Translations under genes and position numbers: made by a program
Source of the DNA: an uncultured Victivallales bacterium
Lineage (GTDB): Bacteria > Verrucomicrobiota > Kiritimatiellia > UBA8416 > CAYOBW01
Direction of reading: 5' to 3'
NCBI GenBank assembly: GCA_964555035.1
Contig: CAZKRK010000002.1
Span: forward strand, 1,968 to 65,967
Length of the DNA: 64,000 bases
The notes under the pieces: generated by a model
The model's input: the letters and a program-made list of their open reading frames with translations, nothing else
What the model was told of the DNA's origin: nothing
Database searches by the model: none
Shown: piece after piece, positions 6,378 to 40,120 of the stretch
Layout: every line of letters starts with the position of its first letter
How positions within the stretch are numbered: the stretch's first letter is position 1

Positions 6378-6401
6378 CGCGATTCTCCTTTCCTGATGAG
6401 C

Positions 6402-11210: not shown

Positions 11211-11294
11211 GTGTCCTTTCTCTTCTTCGGTCACCTCGCGCACATAGTCACGTTCGTCCAGCTTCGTCATGCAGACGGCTCCTCTGACAGGTGT

Positions 11295-15272: not shown

Positions 15273-15312
15273 CTTCAGTTTCCTGTCTTGTTTGCACCTG
15301 TCTGTCCGGGCC

Positions 15313-18872: not shown

Positions 18873-20423
18873 TCAATTGCGTAGTTTCACCGCGGTCTTG
18901 GCGGCCTCGCTCTTCCACCATCGCGGCACCCGGCCAGCCGAGCGTGCTTTCGCGCTGGTCCTGTCGGCGAGCTTGTACTCAAAGTCGTCCGGAACGTTCT
19001 TGGTTTCAGGATCGTACTTCGGGTTCGGGTCCGTCGGTACAGGGGCCGCCGTCTCTCTCCGCCACTCCTTCATCATCCCGTGCAGGCGTGCGACCTCCGC
19101 GGGGTGTTTCTCCGCAACGTTGTTCTGCTCGGAGATGTCTTCTTTCAGGTTGTAGAGTTCGAGCTTCCCGTCCTCGAAGTACTCCATTAGCTTCCAGTCG
19201 CCATGACGGATGACGCCAACCGGCGTGGTGCGGAAATAGGGTGAGATGGAGTCCGGGCTGCTGAGTCCCGTTTCGTAAGCGCTGTAGGTTGGAAAATGCC
19301 AGTAGAGCGCACGATTGGGCAGAGCTTCGCCCCTGAGCGCCGGCATCAGGCTTATGCCGTCAATCGGCTGAGCGCCTTCAGGAAGTGCCGTTCCGGTATA
19401 CTCGAGAACCGTTGGGTAGATATCCACCTGGTGGACCGGCGCCTCATTCACGCTGCCCGCCCTGGTAATACCCGGACAACGCACAAAGAAGGGCTCGCGA
19501 ATCCCGCCCTCGTAGTACATCGCTTTCCTGCCACGTAACGGCCTGGCCGTGGAGACCCTGCCGTGTGGACCATTGTCTGATGTGAAGATCACCATCGTGT
19601 TGTCGGCAAGTCCAGACTCATCCAGGTAGGCAAGCACATCACCCACGGCCTGATCCATACCCTCCACCATAGCCGCATAGGTCACGTGGAAGTGATTCTC
19701 CGCCGCCGGCTTCTTCTCGTACTTCTTAGCCAGATCATGGCGAGCGCCAAACGGGCCGTGAACCGAGTAAAACGACAGGTAGACGAAGAACGGTCCGCCA
19801 TCCTTCTTCTCCTTCATCCATTTGCACGCCTCCCTGGCCAAGCGGTCCGGCAAATGCTCGCCTTCCGGTCCGTCAGGCAGATTCCTGTTCTCGTAGGGAG
19901 AGAAATAGGATCTCGGAAACCCACTCCCATGACCGCCGATGTTGATATCAAAGCCATGCTTGGTCGGGTCGGAATCGAGATGCCACTTTCCCACGTGGCA
20001 GGTCTGATAGCCGTTCGCCTTGAGGGCTTCGGCCATGGTGACCAACTCGGGTTTAAGCTTGCTCCGTCCTCTGGAAGATATCAGCTTGCGCCGTGTGATC
20101 GGCCCCAGGAACCTGGACTTAGCCACGGTGTAGACTTCGGTGCGCGGCGAGTAGGCGCCGGTCAGGAGGGCGGCCCGGGACGGAGCACAGTTGGCGGCCG
20201 CCGCATAGCCATCGGTGAACACCATGCCCTCTTTCGAAAACCGGTCCAGATTGGGTGTCTCGTAGTAGTCCGAGCCCTGGCAGGCCAGATCCGTATAGCC
20301 AAGATCGTCTGCATAAAGAATGAGGACATTCGGCCTGCCTGCCTTCGCGGGATCGTCCGCCGCCCGGAGCGTGGTAACGGAGAAGAGGGCTATCCCAACG
20401 ACAAGTCTTACTACTGTCTTCAT
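18873..20423 (-). CDS. Formylglycine-dependent sulfatase (S1 family)
   Basis: Track ORF 18873..20483. The start MKTVVRLVVGIALFSVTTLRA (signal peptide) is at 20423 and overlaps the upstream sulfatase stop by 4 nt. Signature residues: PNVLILYADDLGYTD, ANCAPSRAALLTG, GKWHLDSD. Confidence 0.85.
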   Translation of the reverse strand: MKTVVRLVVGIALFSVTTLRAADDPAKAGRPNVLILYADDLGYTDLACQGSDYYETPNLDRFSKEGMVFTDGYAAAANCAPSRAALLTGAYSPRTEVYTVAKSRFLGPITRRKLISSRGRSKLKPELVTMAEALKANGYQTCHVGKWHLDSDPTKHGFDINIGGHGSGFPRSYFSPYENRNLPDGPEGEHLPDRLAREACKWMKEKKDGGPFFVYLSFYSVHGPFGARHDLAKKYEKKPAAENHFHVTYAAMVEGMDQAVGDVLAYLDESGLADNTMVIFTSDNGPHGRVSTARPLRGRKAMYYEGGIREPFFVRCPGITRAGSVNEAPVHQVDIYPTVLEYTGTALPEGAQPIDGISLMPALRGEALPNRALYWHFPTYSAYETGLSSPDSISPYFRTTPVGVIRHGDWKLMEYFEDGKLELYNLKEDISEQNNVAEKHPAEVARLHGMMKEWRRETAAPVPTDPNPKYDPETKNVPDDFEYKLADRTSAKARSAGRVPRWWKSEAAKTAVKLRN

Positions 20424-21781
20424 TTTGCGCCGCTCCCATGCTTCATGCGCGCGAGGCCTGTGTCTTTCGTGTCGGCAATCCATCCGTCAAGTAATCCACG
20501 CAGTCTCGCGATTGTGGCCCGATGCTCGGCAGCCCCGATCCCTCCTTCGCCTTGCAGGCTACGGCGGGCAAGCAGGTTGGTGACCTCATGCGGGTCCGAC
20601 TGAAGATCGTAGAATTCCTCTTTCGGTTTCGTTGTCGCCAGGATGAGTTTCTGGGCAGCGGTGAGCTTGCCCTGGGCATCCAGCTTCTTGATGACCGACA
20701 GCATCGGGCGATGTTTTTGGACATATCCGCACTCCCGATACCCAAGCTCCGGTTTGTAGTTGCGGATGTACTTGAAGCGCTTCGTTCTGACACAACGAAT
20801 CACATCCCGGACATTGTCAATCTTGTCCCGCGCCGCGAAGATATGGTCGCGCGTCTGTGCGCGCGGCCCCAGGATGGGGTGACCGTCGAGATACGTGGGC
20901 AGCTCGACGCCCGCGATGTCCAGGATCGTCGCCGAAACATCGATCATGCTGACCATGTCGTCGCTGACCGTGTTCGGCTCGATTCGACCCGGCCAGCGGA
21001 TGATGAGCGGGACGCGCAACCCGGCATCGTAGAGCCAGCACTTGCCACGCAGGTGACAGCGGCCGTTGTCGCCGATGAAGATCACCACGGTATTATCGGC
21101 GATTCCTTCCTCCTCGAGGCGGTCAAGAATCTCGCCGACCAGAGAATCCGCCTTCTGCATGGCATCCAGATACGTTGCCCAGTCCATTCGCACTGCCGGG
21201 TGGTCGGGAAAATAGGGCGGCAGCTCCACCTCATCGGGATTCACCGGATTGTCCGACTTTTCACGAGCAATCGCCCAGCTCATGTTGTCATGCGTGATCT
21301 TCTTATGGTTATTGTCCTTGCGGTGAGTGATGAGCAGCGTCGTCTGAGCGAAGAAGGGCTGTCCCGCTTTTCGTCTCTTCCAGTCCGGTCCGTCAAAGAG
21401 GTACTTGACCTTGAAGTTGAGATCTGTTTTCCCGTGATAGCCACAACTATTCGCCGTGTAGTAGCCGGCCTCCTGAAGGAGGTGCGTAATGGGCTTCATG
21501 CCTTCCGGCAGCACGATCCCGCGGCGGCGCTGATCCTGCGTGTCCGTCCGGGTCTGGTAAACGCCGGTCATCATCGCATTCCGCGACGGCGTGCAGGATG
21601 GCGCTGTGCAGAATGCGTGTGTATAGCGCGCACCCTCTGCTGCCAGCGCGTCCAGCACCGGTGTCTTGACGGCCGGATGACCGTAGCAGGCCAGCTCGGT
21701 ACTGATATCCTTCGCCATGATCAGCACGATGTTGGGCTCCTTGTCCGCCCACGCCGCGGCGCATACGCACAGGGACAGCAA
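20420..21781 (-). CDS. Formylglycine-dependent sulfatase (S1 family), paralog of the sulfatase domain encoded at 30600-31932
   Basis: PNIVLIMAKDISTELACYGHP, CTAPSCTPSRNAMMTG (C-x-P-x-R), GDNGRCHLRGKCW. The track start is an apparent TTG and the signal peptide looks N-truncated (LLSLCVCAAAWA), so the start is uncertain. Only 33 nt separate it from the stop of the CotH giant. Confidence 0.75.
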   Translation of the reverse strand: MLSLCVCAAAWADKEPNIVLIMAKDISTELACYGHPAVKTPVLDALAAEGARYTHAFCTAPSCTPSRNAMMTGVYQTRTDTQDQRRRGIVLPEGMKPITHLLQEAGYYTANSCGYHGKTDLNFKVKYLFDGPDWKRRKAGQPFFAQTTLLITHRKDNNHKKITHDNMSWAIAREKSDNPVNPDEVELPPYFPDHPAVRMDWATYLDAMQKADSLVGEILDRLEEEGIADNTVVIFIGDNGRCHLRGKCWLYDAGLRVPLIIRWPGRIEPNTVSDDMVSMIDVSATILDIAGVELPTYLDGHPILGPRAQTRDHIFAARDKIDNVRDVIRCVRTKRFKYIRNYKPELGYRECGYVQKHRPMLSVIKKLDAQGKLTAAQKLILATTKPKEEFYDLQSDPHEVTNLLARRSLQGEGGIGAAEHRATIARLRGLLDGWIADTKDTGLARMKHGSGAK

Positions 21782-21814: not shown

Positions 21815-24800
21815 TCACTGCTCCACGCTGATACGATAGAATGCGGCGGGAATGCTATCCTGCCCAACCGTGTGAACGTTTTCGGGTGGCGTGGCGGGCA
21901 AGGGACCCGCCTTGGCATCGCCCAGCGGCTGTGCAAGATTCGTCCCCCGCCAGATACGATAGAAACGACCTGACGCACTGTGCCACCTCAAAACACAGTC
22001 CGATCCGCCGGCTTCCAGAGAGTCTATGGAGAAAACGGACATCGCGTTGGTGGGGTCTGTCCCCGCGTACCACTCCTCACGGTTGCTGGCCCCGTCCCCG
22101 TCGCGATCTTCGTCACTGCCGCCGTTTACGGCGTTTGTACTCCCGAAATGCGTGATCTCCCACGTGTCGGGCATACCGTCACCATCCCGGTCGCTGTTGT
22201 CAACTGCTGCCACCCCCGGGGTCGGGCCATTCGTGCTTGCCGCCCAGCTCACGCCGTCATTGGCGTACGCCAACAGTTCGACGCGCAAGAGCGAACTGCC
22301 GCCCCCATCGGGTTCGGTCGGCCACGGCGCTTTGCTATCGTAGTCGACCCACTCGACCGGGATCCACGGGATATCGCCCGTGACGGGATCCGGGTCCCCG
22401 GGGCGTTTGAGGGAGAGCCTTTCACCCGCATTGTTCAGCATGCCCTCATAGGGACTCAGAACACGCGTTCCCGAGGGGACCGTGTACATGTTCGTGAAAG
22501 CCGCGGCATTTGTCGGCGCCACGAGCAGCGTTTCGCCCGCGGCCATCACCACTCCCGTTGGCATGGAAAAGCGAACCGCACCCCGCAACCGCCACGTATT
22601 CGATGGGTACGAAACGTCGTAGAGCGGCACACTGGTGTCCGCCGTGTTGTGCAACTCAATGAATTCAAACGCGTTGCTGTCTGACGGATGATAATGGATC
22701 TCGCTGATTACCACCGGCCCGACCCGCGGGGCGGTATTCCCGCTTCCGGAACTCTGCGCACGCATGGGCGCGAAATCGACGGTGCCGTCGCGGCAAAGGT
22801 GGCGCCCGTACGTCTCGTCGCGCGGGGCCGCCTCGAACTCGCGGTAGTCGCGGTAGCCGGTCATAACCCCGGACTCACCCGAGGTCAGGCAGACGGCATC
22901 CCCCAACTCACTGAAAGCAAAGCCGTTGGTCGCGACGGCATTGGTGCCGAAATGGGCATGTTCGGTCAGCACCGCGTAGCTGCCGGGCAGAATCGCCGCC
23001 ACGTTGCTCACCGCGATCTTCGTTGGTTCGTCCTCGTCGTCGCTGAGAAACCAACCATTGATGTCGAGCGTGTTCGTGCCGGCGTTGTACAACTCGATCC
23101 AGTCACCGGGATTGTCATGGTCCTGGTGCGAGAGCACCTCGTTGATCACCAGGGAATCCGCACTGATGAACGCCTCGGGCGCCCTCCCGGGCGTTCCGCC
23201 CGTTCGGGCGCTGGCACGCCAGGACGAAGCGTTGCTCCAGGCGCCGGCATCGGCCTGGGCGTCGAGAAGCGTAAGCGAGAAATCATCGCCATCTGTCAGA
23301 ACATACCAGTCATCGTCGTAGCGGAAGGACTGGATGGTACGCTCGGCGCCGTCGCGCAGCGCCAGTGTTTCGCCCGCATCGTCGAGCGCACCCGGCAGGA
23401 AGAAGCGTCCCCTGTACTCGCCGGCGATGTTCGTCGTGTGCCAATTCGTGTGACGGCTCTTGAACCCATCGATATCCTGGACAAGAACAACGTACTCGCC
23501 GGGATCCAGGGTGGCGACATCGCCTTCCGTGAAGTCAAAGCGAATGCCGTTGGTGAACGCGATTCCGGCCAGGCCGACGGTCTGTGTTCCCGTGTTGAGA
23601 AGCTCGATGAACTCGTGACTGTTCGCCGTAAGGTTCGACTGCGCCGGACTGGGCGCGGCGGGATGGTACATGATTTCGGTCACGCGCAGAGTGGTAGGTG
23701 TGTCGATGGTAAAGACGGCCTCGGTCAGCGCGCTCCAGACACCTCCGGCGCCAAAGGCGCGGGCCTTGACCACGGTGTTGCGGGTGAGCGGAAGGGGGGT
23801 GCTGTAGAGGGCGCCCGCGATGCCGCCACCTATCGCGCGCGGGTCGCTGCCGTCGAGCGTGTAGTAGACGCTATCCGTGGACGAAATGCTCAGCGCGAAA
23901 CCGCTCGTGAAGAGTCCCCCGTGCTGCGCGAACACAGGCGCCGCCACGCCCGGGTACAACCCCGCTCCCTTCAGTTGGTTTAACACAATCTCTGTTCGGG
24001 ACTCATGAGCAGCCCTGATGTAGTGGTTGAGAATACTGTCAACGACGGGCAGCCAGTCATCGTCGCGCGTGTACGGATTGTGGATAGTTACGGCGTCACC
24101 CCAGCGAGCCGACTCCGCAATGACCGCGAGATCGATTTCGGCTTTGCGCTTGCTGAAGAGCGCTCCAGCGACGTCCGGCGTGAGCACGCCATCATTGAGG
24201 AAATGCCGATGAATGCGATCGGCAAGGCGCATCTTGTACTCGGTATTACCCGTTAGTTTTACATGCAGCCACCAAGGATTGAAGTTCTCTCGTTCGTCGA
24301 GTGACGGACCAAGCTGAACCGAGACACGATTGATGGTAAGGGCATCCGCTTGGCTCACCTCCAGCGAAAACTCCGAATCGTGGGCGATATACTGGAAACC
24401 GACCGGGTCGTTGCGATTGAACACCGCGATACAGTTGCGAGGCTGATCGACTGAGCCGGGAGGCCCGAGTGGTGAATCGCGGTTACCGGTGTAGAAGACG
24501 GTCAGCATGTAATCTATCACGTTGTCGACGTCAAGATAGCAGGGGTAGTCGGGGTTGCGTGTACCGTCCGCGTTCATGCCCTGCAGCCGGAAGTAGACGG
24601 CATTATCGGTGACCCCGTCGTCGATCCCATCCCTGAACCGACCGCAATAAGCGTTCGTAGTGCCATCTGCCGCATACATCCGCCCCGAGCCGGCGTCCGC
24701 CTTGACCGTGTCGTAGTCATCGGAATCGCCGCCGAAGTAGGATTCGCCGAAGCGTGCATCGGGGCGTTCCTCGGACTGGTACAGCCCCCAGTACACCCCG

Positions 24801-26773: not shown

Positions 26774-27450
26774 TTATGGCATTGACACTTCAAGTCGATA
26801 GTAGCGCTTGGGCACGGCGTTGGTGTCGATCATCATGTCATTCGTGCCGGATCCCGGCCGCGGGCCCTGCCCCAATATGTTGTCCCAGTTGGTCTGCATC
26901 AGGTCATCAATGAACTGCAGGACATACACCCGTCCCGTACTGGAATCGAAACGGACCGCCATGGAATTGGTCACCAGCAAACCCGTCAGACGGAGGTAGG
27001 AATTGGAGTCGGTTGGGTCCGTATCCGCAATGTACTCCTGAAGGTCCGAGTGTGGGTCACTGTCATGGGCCGTCGTGTCGTTGGCGTTGGTTGTGCTGCC
27101 CCAATACAGCAGCTCCCACGTATCGTCTATGCTGTCCCCGTCATCGGGCGGAAAGCCACCCGCATCTACTGTAAACCCGAAGTTGAGGTTCCCGACCCAG
27201 CAGCAGTTGGCGCCGGATTCCTCGGTGATGGTGCAGACGGTCTGCGGCGCGGTGAACACGTAATTATCGACGTCGGCGCCCAGACTATCACCGCCCACGC
27301 TCCAGGTACCCGAACTGAACCAGTCGAAATCAAGTCCCGTAAACCCGGCAAATGTCAGGCCGGTGGTCTCCGTTGCGGCAGCCCCATTCAGGCCGTAAAC
27401 CGCATTGCTCACTGAAAAGACCAAAGTCTCGTAGCTGTCGATGCGTTTCG
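26774..27450 (-). repeat. Direct DNA repeat (about 0.7 kb, high identity) encoding the C-terminal domain plus the end of the last module. The closest copy is at 32138-32830. Lower-identity copies lie at 36994-37450, 43486-43930 and 50250-50700.
   Basis: By eye, 27100-27300 and 32480-32700 are about 90% identical or better (example shared string: ccagcagcagttggcgccggattcctcggtgatggtgcagacggtctgcggcgc). The antisense ORFs in the track are near-duplicates: 27075..27263 versus 32376..32636, both ending QQQLAPDSSVMVQTVCGAVNT, and 27166..27351 versus 32539..32724. Confidence 0.7.
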
Positions 27451-30400
27451 GCTTACCTCCGCCATCACCCGTACTCGCCACACCAAAGTAGGCGGAGGCG
27501 TCTTTGCGTGTTGGGCGACATTCAGTCTTCGTAGTGGCGGCTTCGATCCATACCTCAAAGCTCAAGGTATCGGTATCGTTCCCGTCATCATCGAGATTGG
27601 CGTCAGTCACCGTGAACGTCCACTTGTATGGATTGGGAGTGCCGCCGATCGCCATGCTCAGCCACTCACCCGTGGGCGTGTTGGTGATCGCCAGCGATCC
27701 ATTCGTGCATGTAGCCGAAGCGGCGAAGCTGCCTCCGTCGGCAGCGCCAAAGTCCGTAATCAGAACCTGCATGCCGCCTCCCGACGGTGCCGTGACCGTG
27801 CCGGTCAGCGAAACGTCCAGTGGGTCGGTGTCAGGATCGTTGGATCCGATCTGCAGTGTGGCGGTGTGCGTCCCGGTATCTGTGCCCGGCGCATACTCCA
27901 CCGTCAGGTTGGTCTCCCCTCCGGCAGCTACCGTACCGGTGCCACCGGCAACGACCGAGAATTTGCCCGTATCCGTTCCACTGAAGCTAAGATTCGTGAT
28001 GGACAAAGGTAGTGTACCCACATTGCTCACCGTTACGACCAGGTTGCTGATTGTGTTTGTCGGCATCGTGCCGAAATCCAACGACGACGGAGACACCCGG
28101 ATATCGGGCTCGGATAGGGCCGTCGTATCGACCTGGAACGCGATGTTGCCGATACGCCACTGCCCAGATGCCACCTCAGCGGTCAATGTGCCCACGGGCG
28201 AAGCAAAAGTCAGATCGACATTATCGCCGCTCATCGTTTCGCCGCCTATGTTGATCGTCCCTCCGGAGAATCGGTCTATGAACACATAGGTAAACCCGAG
28301 GAACGAACCCATGTTGGCGCCCACAGGTTCCCCGTCCAACCCATAGGTCACGCTGCTGACAGAGAAGGTCAGTATTTCACCGGTATCCAGCCGATCATTG
28401 GCGCCTCCTGAATGGGTAAAGTAGTCGAATCCACTCCGCGTGGGCTTGAAGCCGCTGTTCGCCTCGATCGACACAAGCCACTGCATGGTGTCGTTCGCGC
28501 CGCCGACCCCGTTAAGGTCGGCACCGGTAATGGTGAAGGTCCAGATAAAGGGATTCGGACTGCTTCCGCCAGCCGTCGAAAGCCACTCGCCCGTCGGTGT
28601 ATTGGCAACCGTCACCGTTCCGTTGTCGGAATCCGCGTTAGCCCCTGGATTGAATTCATTCGCTTGGAAATCACTGATCGTGACCGTCGTATCCGGGAGG
28701 GACTTCGTGGCCGCGATCAGGGCAAGGTTCGTCGGGTTAGTATCCGGGTCATTGGACCAGATATGCAGCACGGCACTGTGCGTTCCCGGACTCGCTGCGG
28801 CCGAATATCGCACGGTGATGTTGGTCGAGCCCCCCGCCCCGACCACACCCACGCCACCCATGACGGAAAACCTACCCGCATCCGTTCCGGTGAAGGTGCA
28901 GTTGGTCACATTCAACACGGCCAGTCCCATATTGGATATCTCTGCCGCCAAGTCCCTGGTCCTGTTGACCGTGTTGCTGCCGAAATCCAGCGGCGAGGCC
29001 GTAATGATGGCGATGTCCGGCTCGACGGTATCCAGCGCCCGGCCTTGGAGTGAGACCTCCGCAGGGTTAGTGTCCGGATCCGGGGACCAGATCCGCAGTG
29101 TGGCAGTGTGCGTGCCCACCGCCGCGCCCGGCGCATATTGCACCGTCAGGTTGGTCTCCCCTCCGACGGCGACCGTACCGGTGCCGCTATCGACAATGGA
29201 GAACTTGCCGAAATCCGCTCCGGCGAAGGTCAGATTGGTGATGGGTAGCGGCTGGCCGCCCATATTGAGCACGTCTACGCTCAGATTGCTGGTCGTTCCG
29301 GTCAGGAGCGTTTTGTAGTCAAGCGCGGAGGGTGTCACATCGATGTCGAACGGAGGCAGGCTCGCCATGTCCACTCTAAACCCGAAGTTCAGGTTGCCAA
29401 CCCAGCAGACACCGCCGGCGGTGTTGGTCACGAGCAATTCGCTCTGATCCTCGCTCAGGACAAGATCGGCAACATCCTCGACGACACTGTCCCCACCGAC
29501 ACTCCAGACACCAGAGGCCCAATCGACGTCTCCGCCGCTGAAACCGTCGAAGATCAGACCGCCGGTCCGATTGGTGGGCCCGCCGTTCAGGCTGTAGGCC
29601 GCGTTGGTCACCGAGAATAGCAGGGTCTCGGTCTCGGCGAGCCGCGTCGGGTTTCCCCCGCCTTCGCCTTCGCTCCCCACCCCGAATCTCCAGGTCGAAC
29701 CATCACGGGTTGGTCGGCAATCCGCTCCCGAAGCCGTCGCCGTGACCCAGACTTCCCAGGTCAGCGTGTCGTCGTTATCGCCATCGAGGTCGGCTCCGGT
29801 AACCGTGAAGGTCCACCTATACGGGTTGGGTGATGATCCGGCTGTCTGCTCCAGCCAACTGCCGGTGGGCATGCTGCTGATGGTCAACGTCCCATTCGCA
29901 CAGGTCGCCGAAGGCGCATTGCCACCGCCATCGCCCGCGCCAAAATCGGTGACAAGGACCTTAGCACCGGGCGGTTCCGTGCCCGTCACAATGTTGGTCC
30001 AGTCAGAATAGCCCGAAAAACTCCCACCCAGGTTGGCGTTCGTCGCACCAACACGATAGAAGAATCGCGTGGACTCCATGCCCGTTTGGTGCACCCATTG
30101 CGTCGCCACAAGCTCGTGATGACCGGTCACCGCCGATCCCTCCTGATAGTACTCCACCACGAATCCCGTGCCGTGGTCGTCTTGGTCACTCCATCCGAGA
30201 ATGACTCTCGAGTCGTTTGTCGAGATGCCGGTGATCGTCGGGGTCTGGGCCGCCGATAGATCCGTTACCAAGCTCATCTTCGCTGATGGCATCGGATTCC
30301 ATACCTCATTACTGGCCATGAATCGCAGCCAATACTCGGTGTCCGCATCAAGCCCCGTAAGCCAGGCCGTAACCACACCGCCCGTGGTCACCGGAAGCGT

Positions 30401-31408
30401 CGCGTTGGTGTAGGCCCATCCGCCAACCGGTTTCTCTATGACATCCCACTCCAGCGTCACGGTGGTATTCGTCGGAGGATCCACGTACAGAGATCCCACA
30501 GCCAACGCATTGGACGTGGTGATCGTCTCGTTGGATACCGCCGCGCTATCCCAGCGCAAGTAGAGATCGTCCACCCCCATGTCTTTTGTATCGGCAATCC
30601 ACGCGTCCATCAGTGCCCGCATCTCATCGACCCTGGTCTGGTGTTCCACCGCATCGATGAGGTTGGTGACCTCATGCGGGTCAGTCAACGTGTCGTAGAA
30701 CTCCTCGTCCGGCTTGGGACTCGTGAAGAAAAGAGCTTGGTCCGCATTGAGTTGCCCAAGGTCGAACATCTCCAGCATAGTCGGCCGCATCGGTCGGTGC
30801 GACCTGATGTAGCCGCAGTCCCAGTACCCCAGCTCCGGCTTGTAGTTACGGATGTATTTGTAGCGGGTATCTCTAACGCTCCTGATTATGTCAGTGACTG
30901 AGTCGACCCTATCGCGTGCACCGTAGATATGGGTGCGTGGAACCGCATTGGAACCAATGAATGGGTGCCCGTCGTACCAATCCGGCACCTCCACCCCCGC
31001 GATATCCAGAATGGTCGCCGTCACATCAATCTGACTGAGCAGGTTCGTGTCGGTCGTGCCGGGTGCCAAATGCCCCGGCCAGCGGATGACAAGCGGCACG
31101 CGCATTCCATAATCGTAGAGCCAGGTTTTGCCACGCAGGTGACAGATCCCATTGTCACCCATGAAGATCACGACCGTGTTGCTGGCGATACCCTCGCTCT
31201 CGAGACGATCAAGGATCTCGCCAACCTGGGCATCCATGTACTCCATGGCATCCAGGTAAAGCGCCCAGTCGTCGCGGACGACCGGATGGTCTGGATAAAT
31301 AGGCGGGAACACGACCTCATTAGTGCTGACAGGGTCCGCCGATGCATCGCGGTACGGCTGCCAGCCGGCACCGTCATGCCGGTGCGTGGCAGTCAGCGTG
31401 ATCTGGGC

Positions 31409-31413
31409 AAAAA
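31409..31413 (-). other. Frameshift site: T5 homopolymer on the coding strand (AAAAA on the plus strand). The paralog implies T6.
   Basis: Frame N reads cag ccg ttt ttg ccc aga tca cgc tga. Frame C reads cca gcc gtt ttt gcc cag atc acg. Only about 10 codons are open in both frames, and they bracket the run. Confidence 0.6.
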
Positions 31414-32137
31414 CGGCTGGCTATTAGCGGCGGACCAATTGCCCCCGTCAAAGAGAGGGCTCGTCGTAACGAAATTATGGTCTGTTTTGTCGCTGTAGTC
31501 GACACCGCAGCCGTTGGCCGTGTGGTAGCCATTCTCCTGAAGCAGATGCGTGAAAGGCTTCATGCCTTCCGGAAGAACGATGTTCCTGCGCCGCTGGTCC
31601 TGCGTGTCCGTCCTCGTCTGGTAGACGCCAACTAACATCGCGTTGCGGCAAGGCGTGCAGGTCGATGAAGTCCCAAAGACTTCCGTGTACTTGACGCCCG
31701 CGGCAGCCAACCCGTCTATGTTGGGCGTCTGAACAGCCGGATGACCATAGCACGATTGCTGTTTGCCGATGTCCTCGGCCATGATCCATACGATATTGGG
31801 CACATCTCCCGCAGCTTTCGCGCCGCCGAACACGCACGTGGCCAGCGTTATGCCGAATGCGGCGGCATAGAGACAGCACCGCACGGCCTTGCCAAAGAAT
31901 CCAAATCTGTTTCCCATTCCTGTGCCAATCACCCTTCCTGCTTTCTCTCGTCACCCGCCGCTTCTTCGTCTTCGCCAACAGTCATGCCCATGCTTCACAT
32001 ACACCCGCTCTCCCTTATGCATACCTCAAAAGGACCACGTGCACAACCGTGCCGGTGGCAACGTATCGGCCAGAAACATGCACGTCGCGCAACTTCCCGC
32101 TTGCGTTGCAAATGGTGAGCGGCCACAGGACTCAATG

Positions 32138-32830
32138 TTACGGAAGCGGCGGCAATGAGACCTCAATCCGATAGTGTCGCTGAAGCGGGTCATTGGTATC
32201 AATCATCACATCATTCGCACCAGATCCCGATCTCGGCCCCTGCCCGGGCACATTGCTCCAGGTCGTCTGCATCAGGTCATCGATGAACTGCATCACGTAA
32301 ACGCGCCCCGTGCTGGAGTCGAAGTAGACCGCCACGGAGTTGGTCGCGAGTAGACCCGTCAGACGGAAGTAGGAATTGGAGTCGGTCGGGTCCGTATCGG
32401 TGATGTACTCCTGCAGATCGGTGTGCGGATCCGTGTCGGACTTAGAGGTGTCGGTGGCGGTGCTGGTATCGCTGAAGTACTTCAGCTCCCAGGCATCGTC
32501 TATGCCGTCCCCGTCGCCGGGCGGAGAGCCACCCGCATTCACCGTGAACTCGAAGTTGAGGTTGCCAATCCAGCAGCAGTTGGCGCCGGATTCCTCGGTG
32601 ATGGTGCAGACGGTCTGCGGCGCAGTGAACACGTAATTATCGACATCGGCGCCCAGGCTATCACCGCCCACGCTCCAGGTGCCTGCGTCGAACTGGTCGA
32701 AATCAAGACCCGTAAACCCGGCAAACGTTAGCCCGAGGGTCTCCGTTGCGGCGGCTCCATTCAGGCCGTAGGCCGCGTTTGTCACAGAGAACGTCAGCGA
32801 CTCGCCATTATCATCAATCCGCCCTCGGGT
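32138..32830 (-). repeat. Second copy of the direct repeat described at 26774-27450
   Basis: Same evidence as for 26774-27450; these are the 3' ends of adjacent giant genes. Confidence 0.7.
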
Positions 32831-35800
32831 GGAGTAGTTGTTGTCGCCGGAGCTGGCCACACCAAACCACATACTGTCGTCCTCATGCTTGTGAGAAGGC
32901 TTCAATACAGTCCCGTTACCCCCCGCCGCCGTAATCCAGACTTCCCATGACAGGGTGTCCGTATCGTTCCCATCGCCATCCAGATCGGCATTGGAGATGG
33001 TGAACGTCCACTTGTAGGTATCGTCCTTGTCCGTGGCATCGTTGGGTCCAAACCACTCCCCGGTGGGGGTATTGGCAATGCTTAGGCTCCCGCTATCACT
33101 CGTGGCCGAAGGCGCGCCCGACCCACCGTTGGCCGCACCGAAATCGGTGATATGCACCGTAACGATAGAGGAGGACAGGGAGGTTCCCGTCAGCACCACA
33201 TTGGTCGGGTTGCTGTCCGGATCATCCGACCAGATATGCAGTGTGGCGCTATGTATTCCCACATCCGGCCCGGGCGTGTAGCGCACGGTGAGATTGGTCG
33301 ATGCCCCGACGGCTACCGTCCCCGGACCGCTCACAACGGAGAACCTGTCCGCGTTCGTTCCGCTGAAGGTGAAATTCGTAGTAGACAAGGGTTGTGACCC
33401 CACATTGTCCGCCGTCACGACCAGGTTGCTGGTTGTGTTCGTCAGTATCGTCCCGAAGTCAAGCGCCGTGGGAGCGGCGATAATATCGGGTTCATTGGAG
33501 TATATGACCTCGACGGTTACCTCCTCCGAGGCATCTGAGGCATCATTACACCCGATGGTCAGATCGACCGCATAGCCGCGGTTTCCACCACCGGGCAGCG
33601 TCGTGTCGAGTTGCAGATTGATGTGGCCGTTAGCGGCCGATTCCAGGTTGTTCGAGTAGCTCGCAACGCTGAAGTAGTTGCTGTCCGCACCACCTATCTC
33701 GATGGGCGGCGCCCAGAACAGCCGCAGTGTGCCCGCGCCGTTGTTGGCGAAAGCTACCGGCAAAGCCTTGGGAGAGCCGGCGTGCACAAATTGCTGCGTG
33801 CGCGCCGCCGCGAAATCGGGTCCCGGAGCCGTTGGCCACCAGCCAGGCACCCCGCCTTTCACCGATCGGTAAGTGGAGTCAGTTGGATCCGGCACACTAT
33901 ACACATGCCCTGCCGGCAGGTGCTCGGTTGTCGGGTCCCAGAACGGATTCAGTTCGGTCGGCACAGGGGCTTCGGTTGCCGTGCGCCATGCCTGCATCTT
34001 CGCGACAAGTTCCTCAAGCACAACGGGATGGGTTGAAGCAAGGTTGTTCGTCTCGCCAATGTCGCTGCTCAGGTCATACAGCTCGAAATGCTCCGTGTCG
34101 AAAAACTCGAGCAGTTTCAAGTTGCCCTCACGCATCACCGTACAAGGCATGCCCTTGAAAAAGATTGAAATGGAGTCCGGATCATCCTTCCCCGGAGAAT
34201 TCTCAATGTAGGTCGGGAAATGCCAGAATATCGGACGCGTCGGCGCGGCCTGAGCGCGCAGCAACGGCATCAGGCTGATGCCATCCAGAGGCTGCACGCC
34301 GGCGCCGGTCGGCGGTTCCGTTGACGTATAGTCAAGGAAGGTCGGATAGAGGTCGATCTGGCTCACCGGCGTACTGTTCGTCGTGCCGCCCGTTGTTACA
34401 CCGGGACAGCGTACCATGAAGGGCTCACGAATCCCTCCCTCGTAGAGCATGCTCTTCCCGCCGCGCAAGGGATCTGCGTTGGAGTGCAACTTATGTGTGC
34501 CGTTGTCGGATGTGAACACCACCATGGTGTTCGATGACAGACCGGCGGCATCCAGGTAGCCAAGGATGTCACCGACCGCGATATCCATCGCTTCGACCAT
34601 GCCGGCGTAGTTAACATCGAAATGCTCGGCATTATAGGGCTTGGCCTCGTACTTCTGACCGATGTCGTAGCGGCTTTTCCACGGACCATGAGGCGAGTAG
34701 AAACAGAAATTGAGGAAGAACGGACCCGTATCCTTGTGCGTCTCCATCCAATCGCATGCCTCTTCCGCCAGGCGCGCGGGAAGATGCTCGCCGGTGAGTC
34801 CGTCGGGAAGATTCACGTTCTGATACGGGGAGAAATAGGAATTCGGGAATCCCTTTGAGTGCCCACCGATATTGATGTCGAATCCATGCGGAGTGGGATC
34901 GCCACCCAGATGCCACTTCCCGAGATGACAAGTCTGATACCCGTTCGCTTGCAAGGCTTCCGCAAGCGTAACGTGACTGGCTGTCAACTTAGAACCGCTG
35001 CCAATGGGCTTGAGTCTGCGACGGGCCAGGGGGCCCAGATCGGCCGAGTTCACCGTGTATATCCCTGTGCGAGGCGGATAGGCTCCGGTCAACAGTGCCG
35101 CACGTGAAGGCGCGCAGTTACCGGCGGGCGCATACGCATCCGTGAATACCATGGCATCTGTCGCAAAGTGGTCGATGTTCGGTGTCTCGTAATACTCGGA
35201 CCCCGCGCAGGACAGGTCCGTGTAGCCCAGATCATCAGCATAGATCAGCACAATGTTCGGGCGCGGCGTAGACGCGACACCCGTACCGCGAAGCAGGATA
35301 TTCGTCGAAGGCGTGTCCGGATCATTGGACAAAACATGCAGCGTAGCATTGCTGAATGTGCCCAGTCCCGTTCCCGGCGAGAACCGTATCAGCAGGTTGC
35401 TCATGCCTCCGACCGGAATCGTGCCGGTTCCGCTCACGAAGGAGAACTTGCCCGTATCCGTACCGCTGAACGTCACATTGGTGATGTCCAAATCGATCAC
35501 GCCCGTATTGTCGACCTTCACCGCCAGCGTCTTGGTCGTGCTGGTTCCGACCTGTCCGAAGTCCAGCGGCGAAGGGGTCCGGATGTTGATATCGGGAGCA
35601 GGAACAAACGCTTCGCCCTGAAGCACGATGTTGGTCGGGTTCGAGTCCGAATCGTTGGACCAGATATGCAGCGTGGCCGAATGGTTCCCCGCGCTACTGC
35701 CTGGCGAGTAACGCACGGTGATGCTGGTCACTCCCTCTGCGCCAACGGCGCCGGTCCCACTGACCACGGAGAACTTGCCCGTATCCGCACCGCTGAACGT

Positions 35801-36979
35801 GAAGTTAGTGACGTTCAGAACACCCGCACCGCTATTGATCACCGTCACGGCGCGATCGTCGGTCGTAGTGACCGCAATCACGCCAAAATCCAGTGGCGAG
35901 GTCGTAGAAATCGCAATATCGGGCTCAATGTCCGTAACCGTCCTCCCCCGCAGGGCCACATCCATCGGACTCGCCTCAACATCATCGGACCAGACATGCA
36001 CGGTTCCCGTGTGGGTCGCGTCGCTACTGCCCGCGCTGTAGCGTACTGTGATACTCGTCGACGACCCGACCGCAACACTGATCGGCATGCTTTCCAGAAC
36101 GCTGAAGGCATTCGATCCGCTGAAGGCGACGTTGGTTACGTTCAATACCCCCAACCCCGAATTGGTGATCGTCAGGATCAGGTCGCTGGTGGTGTTCGTC
36201 AGGATCGGCCCGAAATCCAGATCGTCGGGTGTCACGCCGATGACGGGAGACGCCGCAAGAACCACACTGAAATCGAAATTGATCTCGCCGGGCCGGGCAA
36301 ATCCTTTGGCTCCGGGTACCACGCTCATCGAGTTCACGGGCGTGCCGAAGACGGCCTCGGTGTGTGTGCCAACATCAAAGGTCTCGCCTCCGATGGTCGC
36401 ACTGTCGTTGCCCACTTCGAAGTCGCCACCCGCAAAGCCATCGAAGGTCAAGCCGGAAACACGATTGGTGGCTCCCCCGTCCAGGCTGTAAGCCGCATTG
36501 GCTACCGTGAAGGTCAGGGTCTCGTCGTTATCGATGCGACGCCGTTTGCTCGCATTATCGCCCTGACTTGCGACACCAAACTGCTCGGTATTGTTGTTCT
36601 TGGACGGCATCAGCAGCGGTCCCGGACCGGTCGCCGCCATCCAAACCTCCCAGGTCAAGACATCACCGCCGTCGCCGTTCAGTTGAAGGTCGGTGACACT
36701 GAAAGTCCATTTGAAGACGTCGTCTTTGTCGACGAGATCGTCCATCAGCCAGGAGCCCGTCGGCATATTTGCAATGCTCAGCGTGCCGTTGGCGCAAACG
36801 GCCGTGGGCCTACCGGCACCATCGTCGGCGGCGCCGAAATCAACGACGGAAACCGTTGTCGTAGTGGACTCCGCAAGAGCAACCACTCCGCCAATCCGCA
36901 ATAGGAGCAAACCTGCAAGCAACCCGCCGCGGGAAATGCTTGACCTCAAGAATGCACTATTCACCCTTCCGTCCTCCAC
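32138..36979 (-). CDS. Giant secreted protein (1613 aa) with an S1 sulfatase domain embedded mid-protein (about 33950-35263). Upstream of it: one novel module and five choice-of-anchor-D (ASH) domains. Downstream: a sulfatase-associated beta region, one ASH domain, a second novel module and the conserved C-terminal domain.
   Basis: Signal peptide-like GGLLAGLLLLRIGGVVALA. ASH repeats such as PDIAISTTSPLDFGVIAVTTTDDRAVTVINSGAGVLNVTNFTFSGADTGKFSVVSG...ATLHIWSNDSDSNPTNIVLQG. Sulfatase block: RPNIVLIYADDLGYTDLSCAGSEYY, GNCAPSRAALLTG, GKWHLGGD. C-terminus: DGDGIDDAWELKYFS...DTDPHTDLQEYITDTDPTDSNSYFRLTGL...RHYRIEVSLPPLP. Confidence 0.8.
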   Translation of the reverse strand: MEDGRVNSAFLRSSISRGGLLAGLLLLRIGGVVALAESTTTTVSVVDFGAADDGAGRPTAVCANGTLSIANMPTGSWLMDDLVDKDDVFKWTFSVTDLQLNGDGGDVLTWEVWMAATGPGPLLMPSKNNNTEQFGVASQGDNASKRRRIDNDETLTFTVANAAYSLDGGATNRVSGLTFDGFAGGDFEVGNDSATIGGETFDVGTHTEAVFGTPVNSMSVVPGAKGFARPGEINFDFSVVLAASPVIGVTPDDLDFGPILTNTTSDLILTITNSGLGVLNVTNVAFSGSNAFSVLESMPISVAVGSSTSITVRYSAGSSDATHTGTVHVWSDDVEASPMDVALRGRTVTDIEPDIAISTTSPLDFGVIAVTTTDDRAVTVINSGAGVLNVTNFTFSGADTGKFSVVSGTGAVGAEGVTSITVRYSPGSSAGNHSATLHIWSNDSDSNPTNIVLQGEAFVPAPDINIRTPSPLDFGQVGTSTTKTLAVKVDNTGVIDLDITNVTFSGTDTGKFSFVSGTGTIPVGGMSNLLIRFSPGTGLGTFSNATLHVLSNDPDTPSTNILLRGTGVASTPRPNIVLIYADDLGYTDLSCAGSEYYETPNIDHFATDAMVFTDAYAPAGNCAPSRAALLTGAYPPRTGIYTVNSADLGPLARRRLKPIGSGSKLTASHVTLAEALQANGYQTCHLGKWHLGGDPTPHGFDINIGGHSKGFPNSYFSPYQNVNLPDGLTGEHLPARLAEEACDWMETHKDTGPFFLNFCFYSPHGPWKSRYDIGQKYEAKPYNAEHFDVNYAGMVEAMDIAVGDILGYLDAAGLSSNTMVVFTSDNGTHKLHSNADPLRGGKSMLYEGGIREPFMVRCPGVTTGGTTNSTPVSQIDLYPTFLDYTSTEPPTGAGVQPLDGISLMPLLRAQAAPTRPIFWHFPTYIENSPGKDDPDSISIFFKGMPCTVMREGNLKLLEFFDTEHFELYDLSSDIGETNNLASTHPVVLEELVAKMQAWRTATEAPVPTELNPFWDPTTEHLPAGHVYSVPDPTDSTYRSVKGGVPGWWPTAPGPDFAAARTQQFVHAGSPKALPVAFANNGAGTLRLFWAPPIEIGGADSNYFSVASYSNNLESAANGHINLQLDTTLPGGGNRGYAVDLTIGCNDASDASEEVTVEVIYSNEPDIIAAPTALDFGTILTNTTSNLVVTADNVGSQPLSTTNFTFSGTNADRFSVVSGPGTVAVGASTNLTVRYTPGPDVGIHSATLHIWSDDPDSNPTNVVLTGTSLSSSIVTVHITDFGAANGGSGAPSATSDSGSLSIANTPTGEWFGPNDATDKDDTYKWTFTISNADLDGDGNDTDTLSWEVWITAAGGNGTVLKPSHKHEDDSMWFGVASSGDNNYSTRGRIDDNGESLTFSVTNAAYGLNGAAATETLGLTFAGFTGLDFDQFDAGTWSVGGDSLGADVDNYVFTAPQTVCTITEESGANCCWIGNLNFEFTVNAGGSPPGDGDGIDDAWELKYFSDTSTATDTSKSDTDPHTDLQEYITDTDPTDSNSYFRLTGLLATNSVAVYFDSSTGRVYVMQFIDDLMQTTWSNVPGQGPRSGSGANDVMIDTNDPLQRHYRIEVSLPPLP

Positions 36980-36993
36980 ATCTTCTGATTCTC

Positions 36994-39900
36994 TTACTCC
37001 GGCAACGAGACCTCAACGCGATAGAATCGCTGAAGTGAATCGTTGCTGTCGATCATCATGTCGTTTGTGCCGGTCCCCAGCCGCGGCCCCTGTCCCGGCA
37101 CGTTGTCCCAGTTGGTCTGCATCAGGTCATCGATAGACTGCATCACATACACGCGCTCCGTGCTGGAATCGAAGGTGACGGCCATGGAGTTGGTCCTTCG
37201 TAGATCGGTCAGCCGGAAATATGAGTTGGAGTCGGTCGGATCCGTGTCGGTAATGTACTCCTGCAGATCGGTGTGCGGGTCCGCGTCGGAGAAGGTGGTT
37301 TCGTTTGCGTTGGTCAAACCACTCCAGTACCTCAATTCCCACGCATCGAGAATTCCGTCTCCATCGGTGTCGCCAGCATCGACCGTTCCGGCCTGCCGGA
37401 CCTCGAGTTCAATGGCTCCCTCACCATCAATCTTCATTCCCAAGCCATTGTTGGCGGTCAAAGTTGCCTGCTTCAGGAAGAACCCATGATTCACAGCGCC
37501 GCTAATCCAGTTGCTGACAATGACCGTCACATCCACGCTGAAATTGGTGCCGGTGGTCGGTGCCCCCGAAGTCCTGATGGGTCCGGCATTGATCGTAGCG
37601 GTCGTCGCCGGCCCGAACGGATCGGCCGCCGTTGCCCAGTCCTCGGTCAGGCGAAGCACCTCCAAATCCGTATTGTACGATCCTCCGCCTTTATCATTCA
37701 AGGAGTATCCACGAAAAGAGAGCGTGGCGCCGGTAACCTGCCTTTCGCCGAGAGATGCTAAGTCGAACTTTACATAAGCTCTCACCCTTTTGTCCAGATC
37801 GCTGCCGTTGCCGCGCGTGTACAGCGTTGTTGTGAACTCGGCAGGATCACTGCCGCCAACATCGAACTTGTCGATGTTGTTGGAGTCATCGCCGGGGATA
37901 TCGCCGTGGCCGTCAACTGTATTAAACGCAGGCGACGTGAGAACCGTCGTGGTTCCCGTGGAGACGACGGCCTCACCCGTCACCTGATTGGTCCAGTCGG
38001 AATAGCCCGAGAAACTGCCGCCGAATTCGGCGTTTGTCGCGCCAACGCGGTAGAAAAAACGTGCGGATTGCACACCGGTGTAATGGGTCCAGTTCGTCGA
38101 TGCCGTCTCTTGATGCCCGGTTACGGCCGAACCCTCCTGGTAGTACTCCACCACGAATCCCGTCCCGTTGTCGTCCCAATCCACCCACTCCAGAGCGATA
38201 TCCGTGCCGTTTGACAAAATACCGCTGATAGCCGGGATCTGAGTCACCGAAAGATCGGTTACCACTCTGGTCGCCATCGATGTGTCGCTTCCGTCCACCT
38301 CATTGGTGGCTGTAAACCGGAACCAATACTCCGTATCAGCCACGAGCCCCGTAAGCCATGCGGTGACTATTCCGCCCGTGGTATCGGGTAGCGACGAGTT
38401 CGTGAACGCCCAACCACCAGTGGGAGCATTCGTCGTGTCCCACTCCAATGTTACGGTCGTATTCGACCCCGAAGGCACTTCCAACGTGGCGTAAACTTGC
38501 GCATTGGTGGTCGTCACCGTCTCGTTCGATACCCCCGCATCCGACCAGCCAGACACCGTCGGCGCCACGTATACCGTGTCACTATTGACCGCATCAATCC
38601 ATGTTTCCAGTTCGAGCTGGAGCCGTGCCGCCACCTCTGGCTCCGACGCGGCGATGTTGGTTGTCTCCTTGACGTCGGCAAGCAGGTCGTAGAGCTCGTA
38701 CGAACTCCCCCCGTTCTTACTGATCAGCTTGTATTGCTGTGTCACCCACGAGCGGTCATTACCAAACCGGAATCCGATCGGACTCAACCGAGAGGAACTG
38801 AACGTCTCGTTGGTGATGAGCGGCATCAGGCTGACTCCGTCGATCGGCTTCTGGTTCGTGACGCTCAGATCCAGAGCATCGATAATCGTGGGGTAGTAGT
38901 CGCTCGTCACGCAGGGATAATCGGTAGTCCGTGCGATAGGCACCTTCGCCGGCCACTCCAGCAAGCCCGGCACACGCACCCCCCCCTCATGCAGACTGCG
39001 TTTTCTCGCGCGCAAGCCCCCGGACTTGCCAGGCCCGTTCTCAGGCCCGTTATCGCTGCAGAACCACAGCATCGTGTTGGTGCGTACACCCAGGCTGTCG
39101 AGTTCCGTTCGCAATCGTCCGATTTGCGTATCCATACCCTGAATCGCATCCGTATAGGCATCGGGGGAGTCCGCGCCCGACACCTGTTCCGGATCCATCA
39201 CCGGGCGGTGCGGCGTGTGGAACCAGACCACCGCGAAGAATGGCTGGTTGCTTGCTACGGCATTCTGGATAAACGGGACAACGCGGTCCATCATCACCCT
39301 CGAATCGTCCCCGCTCATGTTGTTGGTAACGGCCACGGCTACCCCTTCACCCGTGCTGTTGGTCCAGGTAGCGGGATCAAGCGGCGGCGTCCAATAGTGT
39401 GTCCCATAGAAATTGGTGTCTGCAAAATCAACCGGCTCCGGTAACCCGTTTTGATCCATGCGCATCGGGTGGTAGGTGGGCACCTTCGCCTCGGTAGCAA
39501 AGCAGGTGTCGTATTGGTGATGCCAGGGCGGCGAGTAGTGGGCCGTCAAGCCGGGCTCACCACGGTTGGAGTCATTTCTTAGCGTCGTCAGCGTGCCGAG
39601 ATGCCACTTTCCGAAGTGAGCACATTGGTAGCCCGCATTGTCCAGGACTTCAGAAAGCGGGGTTTCGTCTCGCCCAAGGTGGCCCGCATTCGCGTTCTCA
39701 ACACCCACCCGAAACGGGTTGCGTCCGGTCAGGCAGCTCGCGCGTGTCGGGGAACAGACGGCACAGGCAGCATAGAAGCGGTCAAAGCGCAGCCCGCTCG
39801 ATGCCATGCTGTCAAGACTCGGTGTGTTGATCCAGCCATCGTTGTAGCTCGGATCGCCCCAGCCCATGTCATCCGCCATCATCAGAATGATGTTGGGATG

Positions 39901-40011
39901 GTTGGTTGCCGCCTGAGCAGCAAAGGGAACACAACACACCGACAGGAGCATTACAGGAAGCAACCACCTCGCCGCACAATATGATCTTTGCGTCCAAATC
40001 CACATAAACAT
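36994..40011 (-). CDS. Large secreted S1 sulfatase (about 1005 aa) with C-terminal fn3-like domains, an unknown beta domain and the conserved C-terminal domain
   Basis: Track ORF 36994..40074. The probable start is MFMWIWTQRSYCAARWLLPVMLLSVCCVPFAAQA (signal peptide) at 40011. Sulfatase block: PNIILMMADDMGWGD, CAVCSPTRASCLTG, GKWHLG. The C-terminal fn3-like stretch (TVTLEWDTTNAPTGGWAFTNSSLP...GFVVEYYQEGSAVTGH) is shared with 26774-31312. C-terminus: DGDGILDAWELRYWSGLTNANETTFSDADPHTDLQEYITDTDPTDSNSYFRLTDL...QRFYRVEVSLPE. Confidence 0.8.
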   Translation of the reverse strand: MFMWIWTQRSYCAARWLLPVMLLSVCCVPFAAQAATNHPNIILMMADDMGWGDPSYNDGWINTPSLDSMASSGLRFDRFYAACAVCSPTRASCLTGRNPFRVGVENANAGHLGRDETPLSEVLDNAGYQCAHFGKWHLGTLTTLRNDSNRGEPGLTAHYSPPWHHQYDTCFATEAKVPTYHPMRMDQNGLPEPVDFADTNFYGTHYWTPPLDPATWTNSTGEGVAVAVTNNMSGDDSRVMMDRVVPFIQNAVASNQPFFAVVWFHTPHRPVMDPEQVSGADSPDAYTDAIQGMDTQIGRLRTELDSLGVRTNTMLWFCSDNGPENGPGKSGGLRARKRSLHEGGVRVPGLLEWPAKVPIARTTDYPCVTSDYYPTIIDALDLSVTNQKPIDGVSLMPLITNETFSSSRLSPIGFRFGNDRSWVTQQYKLISKNGGSSYELYDLLADVKETTNIAASEPEVAARLQLELETWIDAVNSDTVYVAPTVSGWSDAGVSNETVTTTNAQVYATLEVPSGSNTTVTLEWDTTNAPTGGWAFTNSSLPDTTGGIVTAWLTGLVADTEYWFRFTATNEVDGSDTSMATRVVTDLSVTQIPAISGILSNGTDIALEWVDWDDNGTGFVVEYYQEGSAVTGHQETASTNWTHYTGVQSARFFYRVGATNAEFGGSFSGYSDWTNQVTGEAVVSTGTTTVLTSPAFNTVDGHGDIPGDDSNNIDKFDVGGSDPAEFTTTLYTRGNGSDLDKRVRAYVKFDLASLGERQVTGATLSFRGYSLNDKGGGSYNTDLEVLRLTEDWATAADPFGPATTATINAGPIRTSGAPTTGTNFSVDVTVIVSNWISGAVNHGFFLKQATLTANNGLGMKIDGEGAIELEVRQAGTVDAGDTDGDGILDAWELRYWSGLTNANETTFSDADPHTDLQEYITDTDPTDSNSYFRLTDLRRTNSMAVTFDSSTERVYVMQSIDDLMQTNWDNVPGQGPRLGTGTNDMMIDSNDSLQRFYRVEVSLPE

Positions 40012-40120
40012 GTTTCGAATTGCTCGTACTTGATATGCTATTCTGTGCTTCACCTTTCCCGTCCTGTTAATCATCTTTTCTCAGCGAATCATTACTTCAC
40101 CCAAACTTCCGCACAAACCA

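Follow-up and report, generated by a model that had tools for sequence, protein, structure and literature searches.

Bacterial frameshift pseudogenes appear as adjacent same-strand open reading frames (ORFs) that cover consecutive parts of one protein family and differ by one frame change; translation ends prematurely a few codons past it, and recoding signals are absent. Programmed −1 frameshifting, as in dnaX and IS3/IS911, likewise combines a shift in the −1 direction with a nearby 0-frame stop, but uses the slippery sequence A_AAA_AAG together with a stimulatory structure. Known bacterial transcriptional slippage involves A/T runs of roughly 7 bases or more, and slipped-strand switching is frequent at tracts of about 7-8 bases or more; a run of five lies well below this length. 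Among sulfatases, the SulfAtlas subfamily S1_8 has solved members (9bb9/9bes), and multi-domain sulfatases occur in the loci of fucoidan-degrading marine Verrucomicrobiota, Kiritimatiellota and Planctomycetota. The gene described here has the layout of a frameshift pseudogene, but departs from ordinary cases through the fixation of its lesion in an uncultured population, seen in many environmental samples, and through its unusual size (1714 codons), with a pristine downstream part.

The window, i.e., the whole stretch of 64,000 nucleotides that was analysed, contains a one-strand gene array for the degradation of sulfated glycans. In common with sulfated-glycan loci of the marine PVC group, the array encodes a GH29 fucosidase, a GH59 enzyme, two GH43-like genes and many sulfatases (at least nine genes) on a single strand, along with a giant LTD/CotH protein and a giant M11-like peptidase. 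One giant sulfatase gene of this array is represented by two separately listed ORFs, an upstream N-terminal fragment (ORF-A) and a much longer downstream piece (ORF-B). According to a sequence-only reading, the two belong to a single sulfatase fusion gene that a one-base frameshift at five consecutive T (T5) has divided. The coordinates of the gene, its domains and its relatives in the window are compiled in Table 1.

Table 1 Features of the split sulfatase gene and of related genes in the window
Feature	Position	Strand	Description
T5 run	31409..31413	-	A5 on the + strand; meeting point of both frames; one-base loss within the Phe169-Phe170 codons
ORF-A	31393..31932	-	N-terminal fragment; 179 aa from GTG 31932 or 174 aa from ATG 31917
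Formylglycine motif C-T-P-C-R	31645..31659	-	Cys87..Arg91 of the rebuilt protein; site of the catalytic nucleophile, in ORF-A only
Downstream part, -1 frame	26774..31408	-	Listed as ORF-B (26774..31312, 1512 aa, GTG start)
Signal peptide			Rebuilt residues 1-35; Sec-type
S1-family sulfatase catalytic domain, S1_8-like	30554..31800	-	Residues 40-455, interrupted at 169/170; PF00884 + PF16347
Linker, ~190 aa	29987..30553	-	Residues ~456-644; 64% identity with the neighbouring sulfatase gene 36994-40074
Module X, copy 1	29354..29998	-	Residues ~641-855; ~210 aa, all-beta, rare, no Pfam family
Two Ig-like domains	28739..29347	-	Residues ~858-960 and ~966-1060; HYDIN/VesB-like, 'choice-of-anchor D'
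Module X, copy 2	28124..28696	-	Residues ~1075-1265
Third Ig-like domain	27809..28111	-	Residues ~1270-1370; choice-of-anchor D
Module X, copy 3	27149..27796	-	Residues ~1375-1590
C-terminal domain, ~120 aa	26777..27148	-	Residues 1591-1714; TSP3-like acidic repeat, then beta region
Intact paralog	20420..21781	-	453 aa, single-domain, 59% identical; fixes the junction; Phe-Phe codons TTC TTC
Three further giant sulfatases	32138-36979, 36994-40074, 50250-55466		Modules in common with the broken gene
Other genes with sulfatase domains	15313, 18873, 20420, 32138, 36994, 40121, 50250
Module X, other copies	50619-51293, 53052-53720, 36215-36892, 32507-33202	-
Module X, weaker copies	near 61989-62246, 57735-58004, 56256-56792, 46309-46614
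Shared C-terminal domain, ~120 aa	26777-27148, 32150-32503, 37000-37365, 43489-43863, 50262-50627, 21824-22186	-	Six giant genes

At the site of the split, the minus strand reads GCT AAT AGC CAG CCG TTT TTG CCC AGA TCA CGC TGA in the frame of ORF-A (…SQPFLPRSR, stop). ORF-A ends in SAANSQPFLPRSR, of which the last five codons (LPRSR) are an out-of-frame tail closed by the TGA at 31393-31395. Its Sec-type signal peptide (MGNRFGFFGKAVRCCLYAAAFGITLATCVFGGAKA) is followed by the N-terminal third of a sulfatase domain (~130 residues), and gene callers have produced both its 174-aa and its 179-aa version. In the −1 frame, the same stretch reads TAA TAG CCA GCC GTT TTT GCC CAG ATC, that is, two stops followed by PAVFAQITLTATHR. 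Behind these two stops, which lie just upstream of the T run, the frame continues with PAVFAQITLTATHRHDG and meets no stop over more than 1500 codons (1512+) down to 26774. As the sequence-only reading had pointed out, the listing of two pieces, the second with a GTG start, conceals their connection. ORF-B is called from GTG 31312. Its frame extends without a stop to about 31420 and shows homology to sulfatases all the way to the T run, with neither a second stop nor a second frameshift. Addition of one base within the run yields a single ORF of 1714 codons from ATG 31917 with no other stop. The restored junction reads QPFFA (junction-spanning sequence NSQPFFAQITLTATHR, peptide TDHNFVTTSPLFDGGNWSAANSQPFFAQITLTATHR).

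The two ORFs are complementary parts of one enzyme. Compared with the 486-position NCBIfam arylsulfatase model, ORF-A covers only positions 6-100 and ORF-B only positions 266-413, and a complete sulfatase domain is found in one polypeptide only after one base has been added. The rebuilt ORF then gives a single Pfam Sulfatase match (PF00884) in which residues 40-309 span profile positions 1-301 of 301 (E = 4e-40), followed by SGSH_C (PF16347). We aligned the rebuilt protein with the intact in-window paralog (P0077) and 17 database homologs. Across these 19 sequences, the junction residues Q167, P168, F169, F170 and A171 are invariant, as are 87 other columns including C87 and R91, and all 92 are kept on either side of the shift. 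Further substantiating this, a search with the rebuilt catalytic domain retrieved 999 homologs, mostly single-domain sulfatases of 440-470 aa with 45-60% identity, whose alignments cross the junction. ORF-A and ORF-B are the two halves of one gene: they adjoin each other, follow a homolog in the same order and need only one frame change to be connected, and the agreement is far beyond chance. The frames meet at the T5 run, exactly where the sequence-only reading had placed their junction.

The intact paralog used for this comparison has its own peculiarities. Only a TTG start is available to it, with a very short N-terminal hydrophobic stretch (LLSLCVCAAAWA) and a stop directly upstream, and 64 nt of it are shared with the next sulfatase ORF (18873-20483). 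Its start is tentative, as is its signal peptide.

Annotation of both pieces by gene callers, and a GAGG just upstream of GTG 31312, could be taken to indicate two separately functional genes that encode a small secreted N-terminal protein and a 1512-aa protein. However, the spacing between GAGG and GTG is only 2 nt, and the stretch from the T run to this GTG (31313-31408) is still sulfatase-homologous coding sequence. Moreover, the split falls midway in a single alpha/beta sulfatase domain, and ORF-B has neither a signal peptide nor the formylglycine residue Cys87 nor the N-terminal catalytic core, while its other domains are all of extracellular types. Promoter-like and terminator-like sites around the split were not enriched over shuffled sequences. 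A pair of independent genes is scarcely credible and the least probable of the readings considered here.

The next question was whether the missing base is a property of the genome or of its assembly. A homopolymer is a classic site of indel errors and the downstream ORF is perfectly intact, as would be expected if the real genome carried six bases (T6 or TTYTTY) and an intact gene. A five-base run, by comparison, is not an error hot spot in short-read data. By exact look-up of ORF-B and of the 174/179-aa fragment with its frameshifted tail, we retrieved contigs from seven JGI metagenomes (3300013118, 3300013119, 3300013120, 3300009008, 3300009320, 3300009431, 3300007510), three ENA assemblies (SUTE22-1, SAMN10231893/894/913) and two Logan run assemblies (SRR8062346, SRR8062321). 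Together with the window's own contig, all 13 carry T5 in their consensus sequence. At least four pipelines (JGI, ENA/SUTE22, Logan, NCBI MAG) produced them, and we count them as at least seven independent samples rather than 13, as several assemblies probably reuse the same libraries. Their identity to the window is 99.93-100% over 2.6-12.5 kb. On where the samples were taken, the literature gave an indirect hint only: a BioSample number close to theirs occurs in a text on oxygen-deficient water columns in which the Cariaco Basin is named, which would be a tentative origin.

Consistent with these contigs, ORF-B is present in a public protein collection at 100% identity (P0001, 1512 aa), whereas the intact 1714/1719-aa protein is absent from ~15 billion proteins and the homolog search likewise gave no full-length match. 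An exact-pattern scan of metagenome_contigs for T5 or T5+N returned no matches; that collection evidently does not include these samples, which makes the scan uninformative on T6. In addition, the remaining large genes of the window (1026-2234 aa) are all unbroken although it contains C/G runs of 7-9 bases. Because T5 is found in every contig, no intact protein is on record and the other large genes are unbroken, an artefact of sequencing or assembly is very unlikely, and the homopolymer error that the sequence-only reading had listed first among its explanations is effectively excluded. At the level of contig consensus sequences, the DNA does carry the lesion, and the frameshift is fixed in a single, nearly clonal population from the environment. 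Cross-assembly look-ups of this kind can decide between error and reality of a homopolymer frameshift without access to reads.

The assemblies differ from each other by only 0-4 bases per 4-12 kb, and the sampled population is nearly monomorphic. Where the assemblies differ, 2-3 substitutions lie close together within a repeated domain (26879-26884, 28836-28845, 32416-32423), and ordinary SNPs are a less likely source of them than paralog cross-talk through assembly mixing or gene conversion. An estimate of dN/dS across assemblies was given up, since the differences are few, clustered in repeats and probably not real polymorphism.

Regarding the identity of the lost base, the sequence-only reading had expected six T to restore QPFFAQIT. 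One added base does restore QPFFA, but the missing base need not be a T: TTTTTT, TTTTTC and TTCTTT would all leave T5 after loss of one base. Phe codons in the window are predominantly TTC (74%), and TTTTTT is used in none of its 22 Phe-Phe pairs. Because the ancestral run need not have been T6 and the window prefers TTC, the lesion may be a simple deletion rather than homopolymer slippage.

Could the gene still be read? Translation from ORF-A into ORF-B requires a −1 shift, and if some ribosomes or RNA polymerases slipped on UUUUU, the 1714-aa enzyme would be made at a low level from a 'pseudo-pseudogene'. The direction of the required shift fits this idea, a slip on UUU_UUG would recreate QPF(F/L)AQ, the 0-frame stop follows just five codons downstream, and ORF-B is intact across 4.6 kb; an unbroken ORF of 1512 codons would be equally expected under continued use. 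Compensatory low-level frameshifting at indels has been documented elsewhere (PMC5009743).

However, the site lacks both components of a programmed −1 signal, namely a slippery motif and a stimulatory structure or Shine-Dalgarno-like element. The 0-frame sequence is G_UUU_UUG, whose first base, G, precludes an X_XXZ_ZZN heptamer. This leaves the A-site tetramer U_UUG, which is not among the efficient Z_ZZN tetramers (A_AAG, U_UUY, C_CCY) and is listed among the barely shift-prone motifs in E. coli (PMC4066793). In that host, to which the following efficiencies apply and whose values may not hold for the organism studied here, Z_ZZN tetramers as a group gave 0.147% frameshifting without a stimulator compared to 0.112% in controls without a motif, and U_UUG reached 1.8-3.6-fold over background even with a strong pseudoknot (PMC4066793). 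Folding of the 111 nt from the site onward gave a minimum free energy of −39.4 kcal/mol, identical to the mean of dinucleotide shuffles (−39.4 kcal/mol; z = 0.01), and no Shine-Dalgarno-like element was found 10-15 nt upstream, nor any GGAGG-like sequence within 15 nt upstream. The site thus differs from dnaX and IS3/IS911 in its lack of a slippery heptamer, an upstream Shine-Dalgarno-like element and a downstream hairpin or pseudoknot.

Nothing in the sequence supports programmed expression, although a basal −1 leak of about 0.1% at the site is conceivable. The slippage-dependent expression that had been raised as a further option is left without support, with no heptamer, a weak tetramer, no downstream structure and a short run, and we consider leaky or programmed recoding unlikely. 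A related idea is that T5 is a tolerated 'savior' indel, where trace −1 slippage on UUU_UUG or a rare T5-to-T6 reversion provides a little full-length enzyme. If true, it would explain the flawless 4.6-kb downstream ORF in a lineage sampled at least seven times; we rate it as equally improbable.

Reversion of the run would also underlie a phase-variable (contingency) switch, in which T5 (off) and T6 (on) alternate and vary a surface enzyme. Large surface or secreted proteins such as the one encoded here are often phase-variable, and the lesion of the gene sits in a mononucleotide run. However, a contingency locus combines a long tract with heterogeneous length among samples, while this tract has five bases and is identical in 13 of 13 contigs, a T6 consensus being found in none. 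The ancestral state, moreover, was possibly not T6. Such a switch is highly unlikely.

Much longer mononucleotide runs than the T5 are present elsewhere in the window, namely the C9 and C8 runs on the + strand (G9/G8 in the minus-strand genes) at 4118-4126, 11315-11323, 38979-38986 and 47259-47266. None of them breaks a reading frame, and they would be the candidates for length variation, if anything in the window varies. The G9 run at 11315-11323 lies 20 nt ahead of the stop of a 1378-aa gene. A fusion of 11295-15431 with 10077-11270 across this run was ruled out; there is no frameshift between the two because they share the same frame and are separated by a plain stop codon. Another G9 run lies inside a 224-aa ORF with a signal peptide (3553-4227, minus strand), a region that at first took the appearance of a 686-nt intergenic gap. 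Inspection of ORFs in the larger intergenic gaps of the window for further split genes revealed no obvious fragments of neighbouring gene families.

The closest solved relatives of the rebuilt protein belong to subfamily S1_8: 9bb9/9bes, described as 'S1_8A sulfatase' (E = 1e-84), and the S1_8B structure 9bbd (E = 9e-62), along with S1_8C. As in these enzymes, the catalytic domain aligns end to end and contains all family-invariant columns, with the conserved catalytic and metal-binding residues and a C/S-x-P-x-R formylglycine motif in the form C87-T-P-C-R91. It also differs from them. As encoded, the gene is split at residue 169/170, and the catalytic domain is followed by a C-terminal extension of ~1250 aa with three copies of module X, three Ig-like domains and the shared C-terminal domain, which we found only in paralogs of the same genome. 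The linker behind the catalytic domain is possibly Fn3-like; it gave no Pfam match at E<=0.01.

Module X is an accessory element of the locus, where at least 11 copies of this ~210-aa all-beta domain are spread over six giant genes. It has no Pfam family. An AlphaFold2 model of the module was confident (pLDDT 82, pTM 0.83), and a Foldseek search of the model against the PDB gave no significant match (best E = 0.02, TM <= 0.24). Among 1.84 billion representatives, only 40 proteins matched a profile of the module at E <= 1e-3. This very rare accessory module (40 representatives in 1.84 billion) sets the array apart from the sulfated-glycan loci of the marine PVC group that it otherwise resembles. 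Some of the matches are stand-alone PEP-CTERM proteins of ~230-245 aa, and in one protein the module adjoins a CBM96. Module X may be a rare surface glycan-binding module.

The C-terminal domain of ~120 aa is likewise shared among six giant genes. It consists of an acidic TSP3-like repeat and a beta region with YYRLEV-like end residues, and its identity is 58-73% among five of the giants and 31% for the LTD/CotH protein. Similarity extends to the nucleotide level, with 81% identical DNA between 26820-27418 and 32193-32791. It looks like a shared sorting or anchoring domain.

Together, the contigs and the state of the downstream frame strongly favour a recent inactivating mutation that became fixed in the sampled population, to which we assign a probability of about 0.8. 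Of the causes that the sequence-only reading had left side by side, this is the best fit, with T5 in all 13 contigs and a downstream frame free of a second lesion. Most likely, one base has been deleted from the codons for Phe169 and Phe170 in a gene of 1714 codons that encoded a secreted multi-domain sulfatase of the S1_8 type. From the native start, translation would now yield a secreted stub of ~170 residues with the signal peptide and the cysteine motif for formylglycine, in which more than half of the catalytic fold is missing. The other 1545 codons would be left without a signal peptide, the catalytic nucleophile or a credible start. Because the stub lacks most of the fold and the remaining codons lack these elements, the allele is predicted to be null, i.e., a pseudogene.

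The inactivation is probably young, as the 4.6 kb downstream of it are free of additional stops and frameshifts and all family-invariant residues are kept. Of the possible substitutions in ORF-B, 2.7% create a stop codon, which places the first nonsense mutation at ~37 substitutions (~0.8% divergence), before counting indels. At 11 positions that are the same in almost all of the 18 other sequences, the rebuilt domain has a private substitution, for example CTPCR in place of CTPSR, compared to 0-5 in comparably related homologs. The 11 substitutions are compatible with specialisation of the fusion enzyme or with slightly relaxed constraint, and are not decisive. The loss was plausibly tolerated through redundancy, as the locus holds at least eight other sulfatase genes, and three giant paralogs have the same accessory modules.

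Outside this population, no ortholog was found by the homolog search or by protein-guided scans of genome_contigs and metagenome_contigs with ORF-B, which returned distant sulfatases only (25-31% identity). The 1258-aa C-terminal extension as query matched only paralogs from the same population, and one such paralog, P0183, lies on a different, non-syntenic contig. A related sulfatase of 990 aa was observed on another contig of one of the samples (locus L020, SUTE22-1_SAMN10231893 scaffold_3777). It adjoins a gene for a 955-aa LRR-Roc-COR-TIR protein (4614-7481) followed by an AAA_21/AAA_15 ATPase; the two look like a defence-type gene pair and are unrelated to the frameshift.

In summary, the two ORFs most likely represent an unusual giant sulfatase gene, an orphan, that an ordinary frameshift has turned into a pseudogene. 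The deposited 174/179-aa and 1512-aa ORFs call for a joint annotation as one pseudogene with a frameshift, derived from a gene for a 1714-aa S1_8-type sulfatase; inventories of CAZymes or sulfatases should not list them as two enzymes of this metagenome-assembled genome. Broader interest in the frameshift would depend on proof of low-level recoding; compared with it, module X and the shared C-terminal domain are the more intriguing observations. For the biology of the organism, the split gene is a minor instance of genes still being lost from a sulfatase repertoire with high redundancy.
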